A DNA stretch of 61,435 nucleotides, taken from Candidatus Yanofskybacteria bacterium. GTDB lineage: Bacteria > Patescibacteriota > Minisyncoccia > 2-02-FULL-40-12 > IGHO2-01-FULL-4-A. The notes under the pieces are model-generated. The model was given only the letters and a program-made list of their open reading frames with translations. It searched no databases and was not told the DNA's origin. This document shows positions 33,384 through 36,137 of the stretch, one piece after another. Made by a program: the position numbers and the translations under genes. The stretch lies in assembly GCA_903897805.1 (NCBI GenBank), contig CAIUCV010000021.1, positions 1 through 61,435 of the forward strand. The letters are read 5' to 3'. How positions within the stretch are numbered: the first letter of the stretch is position 1; each line of letters begins with the position of its first letter.

Positions 33384-33412
33384 TTGACAAATAAATATAA
33401 AAGGAGTATAAT
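33384..33412 (+). promoter_or_regulatory. Consensus sigma70 promoter of the DGR target gene
   Basis: TTGACA (33384-33389), N17, TATAAT (33407-33412). Confidence 0.8.
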
Positions 33413-33575
33413 TAAGGTATAACAATAAAGTTCTTTTATACTAAAACTTACAATTTTGCCACAGCAGAGAGCGCCTTGGGCGGACTTTCTCTGCTGTGGC
33501 AAAGCGAAGGCTGAGCCAAATCAAAACAGCGCAACGGACGTGTTCCGAAAGAACGTGTCCAAAGGAGAACGTGTC

Positions 33576-34253
33576 ATGTTTGACAAGTTTACTTTCAGTA
33601 GTGCCGGTGAAGTTCAAGAGGTAGAATTCGCTCTAGCTAGGGCGTGCTATACCCACCCCGAGGTCAAAGAGTTGTCGAAGGGCGATCTCTTGGGCCAGGT
33701 CCGCCAAATCATCCTTGGCCAAGCCGTAATCAAGCCGGTGGCCGAGGATGCCACTCGGGAGATCACTCTCAACGAAACCACGATCGTGGTGAACCTTGGT
33801 GCCGCACCTAAGCTACCATTCAATGGAGCAGAGGTCGAGAGCCACGCCGGCGAGGGTTGGGCTATCGTCGAGAAGAGTCCCGACGGATTGTATGTGAACG
33901 GCCGCAAGGTCGTATTGCATCTGTCCCGTCGGCAGCAGAATGGCAAGTCGCTCAAGGGCTACGAGCTTCGTGAAGAGCTGACGGGTAAGCCCGTACTCAA
34001 CGCGAATCTGCTCGACACGCTCGCAGACAACTCCCACCTCATACCCGAGGACTGGAAGAAGGACGAGCAGGGTAACACCCGCTACATCTTCTTCTGGGGC
34101 ACCATTTACCGCAGCTCGCGCGGCCACCTCTGTGTCCGCTATCTGTATTTCCACGTTGGGATGTGGGATCGGTACTACGACTGGCTTGACTACGACTGGC
34201 ACGGCAGCCGCCCCGCGGCTCTGCTCGCAAGTAGTAGGTCCTTGGACTTTTGA
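33576..34253 (+). CDS. DGR target (variable) protein with C-terminal VR; C-type-lectin-like fold suspected
   Basis: AAGGAG RBS before ATG 33576 gives 225 aa. The VR encodes YRSSRGHLCVRYLYFHVGMWDRYYDWLDYDWHGSRPAALLA at the C terminus. Confidence 0.92.
   Translation: MFDKFTFSSAGEVQEVEFALARACYTHPEVKELSKGDLLGQVRQIILGQAVIKPVAEDATREITLNETTIVVNLGAAPKLPFNGAEVESHAGEGWAIVEKSPDGLYVNGRKVVLHLSRRQQNGKSLKGYELREELTGKPVLNANLLDTLADNSHLIPEDWKKDEQGNTRYIFFWGTIYRSSRGHLCVRYLYFHVGMWDRYYDWLDYDWHGSRPAALLASSRSLDF
34107..34230 (+). repeat. DGR variable repeat (VR)
   Basis: 124-nt ungapped match to 34623-34746 with 16 mismatches, each opposite a TR adenine. The 3' 20 nt (CCCCGCGGCTCTGCTCGCAA) are identical. Confidence 0.98.
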
Positions 34254-34338
34254 ACCTTGGGTCCTCTTGGACCCTTGGAACTTGGTCCTTGGAGCCGGCA
34301 ATTTTGCCGAAACGCTTTCCAGATATGCGTTCAACTGG

Positions 34339-34378
34339 AACCCTGCATGAAGTCTTGTGCGGGGTTTTTACTTTTTGA
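34339..34378 (+). terminator. Probable intrinsic terminator after the DGR target gene
   Basis: AACCCTGCA...TGCGGGGTT followed by TTTACTTTTT. Confidence 0.55.
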
Positions 34379-34622
34379 TTTAATTTTGTGTTAAGATGTG
34401 TTTGGCAGTAGGCGAATATGTGGGAGATTACGGTTTCCTGCTGCCGAACCCAGTATCCATACATTGAGAATATCTCCGACCAAGGTTTGAGATAGAGTGA
34501 TGTATGCAGAAACTTCAAAAATGAAGCTACTTGGTATAGGATGCTAGGGCATTACGATGCCGAATACGATACAGCCTTGAGAGTTATTCAATGGGCAGTG
34601 GCAAGGAAGGCATTCTATACGC

Positions 34623-34746
34623 AACCGCAACTCGAACGGCAACCTCTATGTCCGCTATCTGTATTTCAACGATGGGATGTGGAATCGGAACTACAACTGG
34701 CTTGACAACGACTGGAACGGCAACAACCCCGCGGCTCTGCTCGCAA
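34623..34746 (+). ncRNA. DGR template repeat (TR)
   Basis: AAC-rich copy of the VR, with 12 AAC/AAT codons in the VR-equivalent frame. A hairpin CTCTCCC-TTATT-GGGAGAG follows at 34759-34777. Confidence 0.97.
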
Positions 34747-34752
34747 CTTACT

Positions 34753-35112
34753 TCATTTCTCTCCCTTATTGGGAGAGTTTTGTTTTTGTAGCTGGCCATA
34801 CCAGCCACCGAGCATCCTGCCAATCTCGTCTATTTTTACGGATAGAGCTATATATTTCTTATTGTCCAAAGACTTGGTTTCCCAGAGTATCATCAAGAAT
34901 ATTTTTAATGTATCAACTTTTCTTATTGCTAGGCGGACATACGGTAGCTTTTCTTCACGCACCAAGAAACTAGCGGTTGCCAGTGCTTCTATGATTTCAA
35001 CGAAGAGAGCATCAATTCTGACGCCAAGCGAGTGCCTATGTGTTTTGGGTATAATTTGATAATATTCATACCAAAGCAAATAAGCACTTTTTACTTTCTG
35101 AAGCAGAGGCAA
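34753..35112 (-). CDS. avd: Avd-like accessory variability determinant (four-helix bundle); true start may be ATG 35168 across a C12 tract
   Basis: Basic helical protein of ~120 aa with IPKTHRHSLGVRID and a C-terminal EIGRMLGGW motif, adjacent to TR and RT. Confidence 0.88.
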   Translation of the reverse strand: MPLLQKVKSAYLLWYEYYQIIPKTHRHSLGVRIDALFVEIIEALATASFLVREEKLPYVRLAIRKVDTLKIFLMILWETKSLDNKKYIALSVKIDEIGRMLGGWYGQLQKQNSPNKGEK

Positions 35113-35147
35113 GAGCTGGGGGGGGGGGGCTTAGAAGAGGTATTTTT

Positions 35148-36137
35148 ATGAAAATCCAATTGGCTCATAATTATGAGTATATCATTTCTCTTGAAAATCT
35201 CCTTAATGCATGGAAGGAGTTTATTAAAGATAAAAAATTAAGGAAAGATGTGCAAATTTTTGAACTGGATCTGATGGGCAATATCATTTCGCTCCACAAC
35301 GATCTTGCCGCCAAAATATATAAGCATTCACCGTATCAGCCATTCAATATCTCAGATCCCAAGCCAAGAAAAATACACAAAGCTAGCGTCAGGGATCGGC
35401 TATTGCACCACGCTATATATCGGGCACTCTATCCATTTTTTGACAGAACTTTTATATCCGATTCTTATTCTTGCAGACTAAACAAAGGGACGCACAAAGC
35501 CATAAATAGGTTCTGTAATTTTGCATATAAGGTATCACAAAATCATAAGAAAACTGTGTGGGTTCTCAAGTGCGATATTAAAAAGTTTTTTGCTTCAATT
35601 GACCAAGATATTCTAGCCGAAATCATTAGAGATTATATACCCGACCCAGATATTGTCTGGCTTATCTCTCGAATCATCAGGAGCTTTTACTCAACGAATA
35701 TTGGTGTCGGTTTGCCCTTGGGAAATCTAACCTCACAGCTTCTGGTTAATATCTATATGACTAGGTTTGACCAATTTGTGAAGCATACACTAAAGGCAAA
35801 ATACTATATCCGCTATGCTGACGACTTTGTTATTTTATCTCCAGACAAAAAATGGCCTGAGGAAACAATTCCAAAAATCAGAGATTTTTTATGGAATAAA
35901 CTTCATCTTCAGCTACATCCAGATAAAGTATCAATTCAAACACTAACATCTGGTGTCGATTTTCTCGGTTGGGTGCACTTTCCAAACTACAGGGTTTTGA
36001 GGACCACAACCAAAAAGAGAATGTTTAGGAATATAAAAAATAAACAAGGGAATATAAATACGGTGCAATCTTATCTTGGGCTTATTAGTCATGGAAACTC
36101 AAGAAGATTAGAAGCAAGATTAGGGATTACCGATTGA
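35148..36137 (+). CDS. DGR reverse transcriptase
   Basis: 329 aa with RDRLLHHA, SYSCR..KGTH, LKCDIKKFF.SI, GLPLGNLTSQ, YIRYADDF and GVDFLGW. No maturase or endonuclease tail. Confidence 0.97.
   Translation: MKIQLAHNYEYIISLENLLNAWKEFIKDKKLRKDVQIFELDLMGNIISLHNDLAAKIYKHSPYQPFNISDPKPRKIHKASVRDRLLHHAIYRALYPFFDRTFISDSYSCRLNKGTHKAINRFCNFAYKVSQNHKKTVWVLKCDIKKFFASIDQDILAEIIRDYIPDPDIVWLISRIIRSFYSTNIGVGLPLGNLTSQLLVNIYMTRFDQFVKHTLKAKYYIRYADDFVILSPDKKWPEETIPKIRDFLWNKLHLQLHPDKVSIQTLTSGVDFLGWVHFPNYRVLRTTTKKRMFRNIKNKQGNINTVQSYLGLISHGNSRRLEARLGITD

Follow-up and report, generated by a model that had tools for sequence, protein, structure and literature searches.

The diversity-generating retroelement (DGR) described here lies within a 61,435-nucleotide stretch of Candidatus Yanofskybacteria DNA (hereafter, the window). 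It is an ordinary DGR of the Patescibacteria/CPR type, in which a target gene bearing the variable repeat (VR) is followed by the template repeat (TR), avd on the reverse strand, and the reverse transcriptase (RT) gene. The evidence as a whole is probably best explained by an ordinary CPR DGR that makes its TR RNA from a gene of its own, shares approximately 36 nt between this RNA gene and avd, and may gate Avd through the length of a G tract.

Components of the DGR and their arrangement in relatives

The target gene (33456..34253, + strand) is a 265-aa ORF without a Pfam family and is preceded by a sigma-70-like promoter (33384..33412, + strand; TTGACA-17-TATAAT, 12/12). The VR (34108..34230, + strand; 123 nt) lies inside this ORF at its 3' end and stops 23 nt before the stop codon. 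The TR (34624..34746, + strand) is a 123-nt direct repeat of the VR, with 88% identity over this length. All 15 mismatches between the two copies have A in the TR copy; these A-site differences show past mutagenic activity only. The whole 621,693-base assembly contains just these two copies of the repeat. A terminator-like hairpin and T-run (34337..34368, + strand) are located after the target gene and before the TR RNA unit.

The RT (35148..36137, + strand; 329 aa, with its ATG at 35148) matched Pfam RVT_1 (E 1.2e-22). Its closest PDB entry was 8ub7_A (E 4.3e-41), aligned over residues 10-311, which is nearly the full length; the title of 8ub7 describes a DGR ribonucleoprotein reverse transcriptase. 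LGNLTSQ and YADD, which are hallmarks of DGR RTs, both occur in the protein. The locus combines the features by which a DGR is recognized: an RT of the DGR lineage, TR/VR differences at TR adenines, and a VR at the 3' end of the target gene.

avd (34753..35112, - strand) encodes 119 aa from a TTG at 35112, and its stop appears as TCA on the + strand at 34753-34755. The earlier note had placed this stop 7 nt beyond the TR 3' end, which agrees with the six bases (34747-34752) between the stop and the last base homologous between TR and VR. The ORF matched Pfam bAvd (PF22296; E 7.7e-11) with 42.9 bits, above the cut-off of 40. Its AlphaFold2 model (pLDDT 93) is a predicted four-helix bundle, and the top PDB match of the model was 4dwl_C, the Avd of the Bordetella phage DGR (TM 0.85/0.91, rmsd 1.5 A). 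Since a profile of the Avd alignment found nothing at E <= 1 among PDB sequences, the tie to solved structures comes from fold comparison, and Pfam provides the link in sequence. The proposal that this minus-strand ORF is a real Avd was confirmed by the bAvd match and by a model that folds like Avd (4dwl, TM 0.85).

Our survey of relatives covered RT identities of 60-73% only. avd was on the reverse strand directly upstream of the RT gene in all 75 Avd matches (74 relatives and the window). The order and orientation were the same in 74/74 relatives with DNA upstream of the RT and, therefore, the layout is not due to chance. Among loci passing the A-biased-repeat filter, TR and VR were both on the + strand and upstream of avd in 56/56, and the gap from the TR end to the avd stop had a median of 12 nt (range, -24 to 44). 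The RT has at least 559 relatives. Wu et al. (2018; NAR 46:11, PMC5758913) reported that an architecture termed B3, "TR-(avd)-RT", accounts for 90% of their CPR set, and the window has this order with a reversed avd. Roux et al. (2021; PMC8144416) described a DGR clade 2 restricted to Patescibacteria and included 972 clade-2 DGRs in one analysis. The reversed avd is thus standard and not a special layout, as indicated by the 74/74 relatives and the published B3 architecture.

The candidate TR RNA gene

The TR is most likely produced as its own small RNA of approximately 385 nt, extending roughly from 34404 to 34788. In the predicted order, a -10 box (34389-34397) is followed by a leader of approximately 220 nt and the 123-nt template, and then by the closing helix and a stem-loop with a U-tract. 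The candidate promoter is an extended -10-like box (TGTTAAGAT, 34389..34397, + strand; family consensus TGnTAnAAT). In an alignment of 56 VR-TR spacers, the TGnTAnAAT box was accompanied by conserved blocks up to the TR. The conserved, structured 5' leader (34404..34620, + strand) comprises hairpins at 34411-34445 and 34462-34502 and a domain at 34534-34620. Compensatory changes were present in 47 of the 52 predicted pairs of the leader. Canonical cells amounted to 93.9%, a share that fell to 37-47% when the partners were slid and to 71.0 +/- 0.6% when they were shuffled. In Rfam, positions 34250-35200 matched no family; the only two matches, both to miRNAs (E 0.19 and 0.48), were at chance level and far below gathering. 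Judged from sequence, the extended -10 box, the covarying leader of approximately 220 nt, and the hairpin described below appear to mark a self-contained TR RNA gene.

A 7-bp hairpin followed by a T-run (34759..34787, + strand) lies 3' of the TR, opposite avd residues ~109-118. It consists of CTCTCCC (34759-34765), the loop TTATT, and GGGAGAG (34771-34777), with TTTTGTTTTT directly after it at 34778-34787; the hairpin claimed at 34759-34777 was, thus, present. It has the composition of an intrinsic terminator, namely, a G+C-containing 7-bp stem (3-5 G-C pairs) and then a U-tract. We infer that transcription may terminate here, so that this stem-loop and U-tract would form the 3' end of the TR RNA. 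A hairpin-anchored scan detected a hairpin and T-run in 64/72 loci, versus 249/3600 dinucleotide shuffles. The outer stems of the matching loci comprised 40 distinct sequences, and the stem covaries. Eight of the 72 regions had no match under the rules of the scan; their printed sequences revealed a hairpin and T-rich tail beyond these rules in five, one was clipped by the end of the region, and no hairpin was seen by eye in the remaining two (L066 and L070).

In 30 loci, the avd stop was inside the hairpin; in another 27, the ORF contained the entire hairpin, and in seven, the two did not overlap. Because the position relative to the avd stop varies in this manner, the hairpin appears to be kept independently of the avd frame. 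The U-run, read antisense, encodes the conserved "K-x-N-S-P" tail of Avd; therefore, part of the conservation of the U-run could be at the protein level. A role for the hairpin as a bidirectional terminator that also serves avd was rejected, since the minus strand has no U-run and the minus-strand scan was empty in the window. RNAalifold predicted 0 pairs for the 72 TR-flank regions as aligned by MAFFT, in which variable loops had put the stems out of register, and the hairpin-anchored scan with shuffles was used instead. Folding of 34600-34830 alone was uninformative (z = -0.34).

An 8-bp long-range helix would tie the 3' flank of the TR back to the leader. Its 5' strand (AAATGAAG, 34519..34526, + strand) and 3' strand (CTTCATTT, 34751..34758, + strand) form an inverted repeat that brackets the TR, and the 3' strand holds the avd stop TCA (34753-34755). 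Complementarity in 50 loci was 7.05 within the own locus versus 5.94 +/- 0.17 when leaders and flanks were permuted among these loci, and 0/1000 permutations reached 7.05. L008, L016, L038, and L032 are examples in which the helix covaries.

The hairpin and this helix might be protein-binding parts of an RNP, instead of or besides a terminator, a reading that we can put forward only tentatively. In that case, and equally tentatively, they would correspond to two elements of the Bordetella DGR RNA, the stem-loop that binds Avd and the "cPRT Stop" duplex. Handa et al. (10.1101/2023.10.23.563531) predicted a stem-loop downstream of the TR together with an upstream:downstream duplex in 207/278 Avd-bearing DGRs, and read stem-loops directly 3' of TRs as Avd-binding elements. 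In the present loci, the TR 3' flank is likewise connected to the leader by a covarying helix, and the base of the hairpin stem is nearly fixed (C-G, T-A, and C-G in 58, 49, and 50 of 64), which suggests sequence-specific recognition. However, a binding site alone does not need the U-run, which is kept in 64/72 loci. Furthermore, the order found here (duplex strand, then stem-loop) differs from that described for BPP-1, and the upstream strand is ~95 nt from the TR, unlike in BPP-1 (10.1101/2023.10.23.563531). Binding and terminator roles of the hairpin can coexist.

The overlap with avd and the head-to-head starts

avd would converge on the TR RNA gene, with its stop and last ~12 codons opposite the helix strand, the stem-loop, and the U-tract. 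The earlier note described the stretch directly 3' of the TR as dual-use, and the avd stop and last ~12 codons are indeed located on the conserved helix strand, hairpin, and T-run. The excess synonymous conservation for which it proposed a test at the avd 3' end was also found. In 65 sequences, the observed/expected ratio was 1.33-1.59 only at residues 106-114 and 109-117, i.e., in the last ~12 codons, versus 0.93-1.15 for all segments within residues 1-105. The sequence shared by avd and the TR RNA is, by this estimate, approximately 36 nt at their 3' ends, not the whole gene, and the two transcripts are predicted to overlap by at least ~36 nt.

It had also been proposed that a TR-RT transcript is antisense to avd mRNA and thereby controls mutagenesis. 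A co-transcript of TR and RT with a BPP-1-like spacer would run antisense through the whole of avd. Support for this may be seen in the position of avd between TR and RT on the opposite strand and in BPP-1 itself, in which the 140 nt that follow the TR are indispensable and provide the site of priming (10.1101/2023.10.23.563531). Moreover, the RT subfamily of the window has no clear -10 directly before the ATG and, therefore, a promoter further upstream is possible. However, the terminator-like hairpin and U-run, 12 nt after the TR, are kept in 64/72 loci, which argues against a co-transcript reaching through avd. Since the synonymous excess is limited to the last ~12 codons, read-through antisense to all of avd is unlikely; the absence of an excess at residues 1-105 means that no conserved RNA is encoded there, and the conserved, covarying RNA is instead upstream of the TR. 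A long BPP-1-like spacer opposite avd is thus not apparent. In addition, ~20 relatives carry a G-run, a TAGAAT-like hexamer, 7 nt, and then the ATG, which suggests that the RT has its own promoter. We consider the co-transcript to be highly improbable, as is its pairing or collision with avd mRNA, and favor a separate TR RNA gene that meets avd at the 3' ends.

avd itself may be a source of antisense RNA. In the 450 nt beyond the avd stop, the minus strand of the window has no terminator-like site, and 8/63 loci only have one; therefore, avd transcripts may run antisense into the TR. avd mRNA that continues past the hairpin and across the TR and leader could couple the Avd level to the template-RNA level, either by pairing of its 3' portion with the TR RNA or by polymerase collision. 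The convergent arrangement in 74/74 relatives and the short gap between the TR and avd stop (median 12 nt) are consistent with this coupling. However, a hairpin without a U-run can still stop transcription or stabilize a 3' end, and Rho-dependent termination is invisible in sequence. The conservation of the layout may also be plain inheritance, since Wu et al. (PMC5758913) found DGR cassette architectures to be stably inherited. We regard this coupling as unlikely, in either of its two modes. Antisense control of mutagenesis is, thus, a proposal only, and some antisense interplay between avd and the TR RNA may occur. Among the matches listed in a literature search on DGR, antisense, and avd, a reversed avd was absent from titles and abstracts.

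At the other end of avd, a slippery G12 tract lies between the starts of RT and avd, which are head to head. The 35-nt gap between the RT ATG (35148) and the in-frame avd TTG (35112) holds this G12/C12 homopolymer (35118..35129), a candidate slippage switch located after a conserved antisense ATG and ahead of the Avd body. The ATG (35166..35168, - strand) is opposite RT codon 7 (CAT), has TATACT ahead of it (35181-35176), and is likely the original avd start. An avd start at 35168 overlaps RT codons 1-7 and, at G12, does not share the frame of the Avd body. The earlier note stated that the avd start abuts or overlaps the RT start; abutment across the 35-nt gap stands, and the overlap would be true only at another length of the G tract.

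A tract of at least seven G was present in 60/75 loci, with lengths of 7-14, and all 578,025 nt of these loci contain 66 G or C runs of at least seven. RT codon 7 was CAT in 62/75 loci and never CAC, versus 632 CAT and 434 CAC elsewhere in the same RT genes. In 37/48 loci, the antisense ATG was preceded by a TAnnnT hexamer at a distance of exactly 7 nt. Of the antisense ATGs of 48 loci, 10 were in frame with the Avd body, 16 were at +1, and 22 were at +2. In most relatives, the G tract separates the conserved antisense ATG from the Avd body, and its length in the window places the ATG out of frame. We speculate that the length of the tract gates Avd. An ATG that is mostly out of frame (10/48 in frame) fits a switch that is mostly "off", and also fits a non-coding tract.

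The G tract may instead sit in the RT 5' leader or promoter. A TAnnnT hexamer ended 4-12 nt before the RT ATG in 27/60 loci, exactly 7 nt before it in 14, and was not found there in the window. The tract as a promoter spacer (-35-like TGGCAA, G-run, TAGAAT, 7 nt, ATG) fits another subfamily, not that of the window, and was retained as a secondary possibility only.

Homopolymer contingency loci are known in Neisseria, Haemophilus, and Campylobacter. The tract of the window and its relatives would resemble these in being a G/C run of 7-14 that differs in length among relatives and is placed such that one base shifts the frame of a gene. In literature on DGRs, phase variation, and homopolymeric tracts, no DGR switch was among the matches listed. 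We propose the poly-G tract as a better candidate switch than antisense control. A broader reading, to which we give little credence in any of its parts, is that the reversed avd gates mutagenesis twice. At the 5' end, the poly-G/C tract would set the frame of a leaderless avd mRNA starting from the ATG at 35168. At the 3' end, avd transcripts would converge on the TR RNA gene and, having no terminator, read into it, such that the two RNAs pair or collide. The reversed orientation would then have been kept for this coupling and not by inheritance alone.

Comparison with known systems

The CPR B3 cassettes (Wu et al. 2018, PMC5758913; clade 2 of Roux et al., PMC8144416), as described in the text of these studies, resemble the window in order, orientation, the presence of Avd, chromosomal location, and a Patescibacteria host, and also in having a single target with a C-terminal VR and without a recognizable domain. 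The layout is identical in every respect. Therefore, nothing about the layout of the window is new, since published CPR DGRs, a clade with hundreds to thousands of members, have it as standard, and an "antisense avd" in Patescibacteria DNA can be taken as ordinary. The text of Wu et al. and Roux et al. does not mention an own TR RNA promoter, 5' leader, closing helix, or terminator-like hairpin in the avd tail; Table S1 of Wu et al. and Table S3 of Handa et al. may already list such stem-loops. The useful part of the present study is a testable map of the TR RNA, which is predicted to start near 34404, to contain a covarying leader and a closing helix, and to finish with a terminator-like element. 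The RNA needed for the in vitro reconstitution of a CPR DGR is defined by this map.

In Trichodesmium erythraeum, the TR has a promoter of its own and yields a discrete RNA of 265 nt (Pfreundt et al. 2014, PMC4143802). This resembles our proposal in that the TR forms a discrete small RNA apart from the RT mRNA. The Trichodesmium RNA was detected by dRNA-seq and Northern blotting, whereas that of the window is predicted from sequence. The two systems also differ in phylum and in the many targets of Trichodesmium, for which the cited article does not report an overlap with a reversed avd.

The DGR of BPP-1 resembles the window in its RT (8ub7_A, E 4.3e-41), Avd fold (4dwl, TM 0.85), and adenine-specific TR/VR differences. 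Similarly, the flanks of the template in the BPP-1 DGR RNA pair upstream with downstream sequences (10.1101/2023.10.23.563531). In BPP-1 (mtd-avd-TR-brt), avd precedes the TR in the same orientation, whereas in the window it is reversed and follows the TR. Furthermore, BPP-1 has a 140-nt spacer downstream of the TR, whereas only ~40 nt follow the TR in the window and a structured ~220 nt precede it. This leader may take the role of the Bordetella spacer RNA. The map, thus, suggests an RNA scaffold upstream of the template, not downstream as in the Bordetella model.

The retroelement and its layout among relatives

A complete diversity-generating retroelement (DGR) is present in this region. 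The two copies of a 123-nt direct repeat (34108-34230 and 34624-34746) are 88% identical, and since the downstream copy carries A at all 15 mismatches, we assigned it as the template repeat (TR) and the upstream copy as the variable repeat (VR). The VR sits at the 3' end of the target gene (ORF 33456..34253, plus strand), and no third copy was found in the 621,693-base, 23-contig assembly. The reverse transcriptase (RT) gene (35148..36137, plus strand) matched Pfam RVT_1 (E 1.2e-22), and its best solved relative was 8ub7_A (E 4.3e-41, residues 10-311), the entry title of which is DGR ribonucleoprotein reverse transcriptase. The accessory gene avd (34753..35112, minus strand) encodes 119 aa and matched Pfam bAvd with 42.9 bits against a gathering score of 40. 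Avd was predicted to be a four-helix bundle (pLDDT 93, from 32 aligned family members), and the best PDB match of the model was 4dwl_C, the Avd of the Bordetella phage DGR (TM 0.85/0.91, rmsd 1.5 A). A sequence-profile search of the PDB with Avd gave no match; therefore, fold connects this protein to the solved Avd structures, and the sequence link is Pfam.

The geometry at avd is as the earlier note drew it. The avd stop codon (34753-34755) is 6 bases from the last TR base and is followed on the plus strand by a hairpin at 34759-34777, while the in-frame TTG start of avd (35112) is separated from the RT ATG (35148) by 35 nt, which include a run of 12 G (35118-35129).

A scan for RT relatives, with one genome per species, returned at least 599 matching stretches, and an RT relative is encoded in at least 559 of them. 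We used the 80 best (60-73% identity), whose loci are designated by L numbers. Most are labelled as Patescibacteria (CPR) lineages, many as "uncultured Candidatus Saccharibacteria" and several only as "bacterium". Despite being labelled Gammaproteobacteria and Bacteroidota, respectively, the loci L018 and L075 also have the CPR-type cassette; binning or labelling is the probable cause. Using a family HMM built from the window's Avd, we found an Avd ORF in 75 of the 81 sources (80 loci and the window), each time immediately ahead of RT and on the minus strand (75/75). In the loci with no Avd match (L009, L027, L033, L073, L078, and L082), the RT ORF begins at locus bases 2-16, with no upstream DNA. 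A repeat pair with at least 80% of its mismatches at A of one copy was detected in 56 of the 75 loci, always in the order VR(+), TR(+), avd(-), RT(+) (56/56), and the gap from the TR end to the avd stop had a median of 12 nt (range -24 to 44, n=56). Among the 19 loci without such a pair, 14 were too short upstream and L011 had approximately 1.5 kb there; L004, L048, L050, and L051 had more than 3 kb upstream and no repeat pair passing the A-bias filter. The reversed-avd layout is not unusual; it is already known and standard, being Architecture B3, "TR-(avd)-RT" with parentheses for the reverse strand, in Wu et al. (2018, PMC5758913). The earlier note had conceded that a catalogued, common layout would be less novel, and this is the case here. 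Roux et al. (2021, PMC8144416) describe DGR clade 2 as restricted to Patescibacteria.

We also noted an inverted repeat (33455-33503) whose 16-bp arms match perfectly around a 17-nt loop. It is located between a promoter-like site matching at 12 of 12 positions (33384-33412) and the probable target gene start; because of this position, a strong hairpin would form in the target mRNA leader. Just past the VR, across the target gene stop codon, the motif CTTGG occurs in approximately six copies (34240-34295), amid which lies a G+C-rich 6-bp hairpin, GGGTCC TCTT GGACCC (34259-34274). Several columns of this zone are conserved in the 56-locus spacer alignment, and it is possibly a target-site recognition element downstream of the VR.

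The proposed TR RNA and its 3' hairpin

The VR-TR spacer is 393 nt in the window and 239-431 nt in 55 relatives. The alignment of 56 spacers revealed a conserved TGnTAnAAT box (TGTTAAGAT in the window, 34389-34397) and conserved blocks reaching the TR. Directly upstream of the TR is a structured leader of approximately 220 nt (34404-34620), for which RNAalifold predicted 52 pairs, 47 with compensatory changes, from 53 non-redundant rows. Of all cells, 93.9% hold canonical pairs; this share fell to 37-47% when the 3' partner was shifted by 1-3 columns and to 71.0 ± 0.6% when partners were shuffled. No Rfam family matched the leader. Within the leader, the conserved segment AAATGAAG (34519-34526) shows complementarity to the linker that joins the TR to the hairpin, CTTCATTT (34751-34758); the avd stop codon lies in this linker. 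Across 50 loci, this complementarity had an own-locus mean of 7.05 versus 5.94 ± 0.17 after leaders and flanks had been permuted, and none of 1000 permutations reached 7.05. Double changes in the long-range helix include ATAAAG/CTTTAT (L008 and L054), ACGAAG/CTTCGT (L016 and L038), and AACAGC/GCTGTT (L032). Based on the conserved box, the covarying leader, the closing helix, and terminator-like elements, including one after the target gene (34337-34368), the region reads as a separate TR RNA gene with a putative promoter, leader, TR, closing helix, and terminator. The leader sequence CTTCA-AAAA-TGAAG (34512-34526) is shared by the window and many relatives but not conserved in all loci. Its TGAAG could thus form either a local hairpin with the nearby CTTCA or the long-range helix with the CTTCA in the 3' flank of the TR, a possible alternative-pairing switch.

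The hairpin 3' of the TR (CTCTCCC/TTATT/GGGAGAG, 34759-34777, plus strand) is directly followed by TTTTGTTTTT and has the form of a plus-strand intrinsic terminator; read on the minus strand, it lacks a U-run. L036, L053, and L068 of the 75 loci were left out (contig end); in the other 72, the sequence continued for 35 nt or more past the avd stop. At the same place, 64 of these 72 carry a hairpin followed by a T-run, versus 249 of 3600 dinucleotide shuffles of the same regions; a stricter scan found 52/72, the background being 0.088 sites per 105 nt. By inspection of their printed sequences, 5 of the 8 misses have a hairpin and T-rich tail that do not fit the scan rules, L066 and L070 have no such element, and in L030 the region end cut it off. 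The three outer stem pairs are nearly fixed (C-G 58, T-A 49, and C-G 50 of 64), and the inner pairs vary on both arms (40 distinct outer-7 arms; 4-6 pair types at positions 4-7). Relative to the hairpin, the avd stop is internal in 30 loci; in 27 the ORF contains the whole hairpin, and in 7 the hairpin is entirely past the stop. Since the stop position varies in this manner, the element is maintained for its own sake, with the avd end floating over it. For 207 of 278 Avd-bearing DGRs, Handa et al. (10.1101/2023.10.23.563531) predicted a stem-loop just 3' of the TR as well as pairing between the sequences on either side of the TR; by analogy, the hairpin may also be an RNP element.

The earlier note regarded the TR 3' spacer as dual-use sequence. 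In a codon alignment of 65 of 70 avd genes, we asked how often two genes encoding the same residue also used the same codon, and set this against the frequency expected from codon usage (85% protein-identity filter; L064 dropped as an aberrant match and L065 skipped for a stop or ambiguous residue). The observed/expected ratio was 1.07 overall and 0.93-1.15 in 9-residue windows within residues 1-105. The excess of synonymous conservation sought at the 3' end of avd was found at the tail only (1.33 in residues 106-114 and 1.59 in 109-117), where QKQNSPNK is the antisense of the U-run and hairpin. Dual use is real but short and does not extend over the whole gene; the interpretation in the earlier note is thus borne out in part.

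The junction between avd and RT

Of 75 loci, 60 carry at least 7 consecutive G where avd and RT meet (7-14 G, mode 10), whereas all loci together hold only 66 G or C runs of this length in 578,025 nt. Given this recurrence, the G run of the window is no assembly artefact. RT codon 7 has a minus-strand ATG opposite it (at 35168 in the window); the codon is CAT in 62/75 loci and CAC in none; elsewhere in those RT genes, His is encoded by 632 CAT and 434 CAC. This antisense ATG is synonymously conserved. A TAnnnT hexamer precedes it; of 48 loci, 37 have the hexamer end exactly 7 nt away and 45 within 4-12 nt, a spacing that would fit a leaderless avd mRNA.

The G tract lies between the antisense ATG and the Avd body, and the frame from ATG to tract is open in 48/48 loci. 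Relative to the Avd body, this ATG is in frame in 10 loci, off by one in 16, and off by two in 22, including the window, where its frame reads MSQLDFHKNTSSKPPPP with a stop soon after; gaining one G or losing two would join the frames. The tract may be non-coding. Alternatively, the pattern fits a candidate on/off slippage switch of Avd, mostly caught "off".

Proposed antisense control and comparison with known DGRs

The earlier note envisaged a TR-RT transcript antisense to avd, with built-in control of mutagenesis. Such a co-transcript through avd is disfavoured because the terminator-like element is conserved and avd shows no nucleotide constraint across its length. An overlap of TR RNA and avd of approximately 36 nt at both 3' ends would remain. 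Minus-strand terminator-like sites within 450 nt past the avd stop are rare (8/63 loci), and the window has none within this distance; therefore, avd transcripts may run into the TR. Interplay in the opposite sense, from the avd transcript to the TR, may thus have room. Antisense control itself is hypothetical, and the anatomy can be explained without it.

The Bordetella DGR requires a 140-nt spacer downstream of the TR, according to Handa et al. (10.1101/2023.10.23.563531). In contrast, the synonymous ratios of residues 1-105 do not point to any long conserved RNA on the strand facing the avd body. For the proposed separate TR RNA gene there is a precedent: in Trichodesmium, experiments demonstrated a self-standing TR RNA of 265 nt with its own promoter (PMC4143802).
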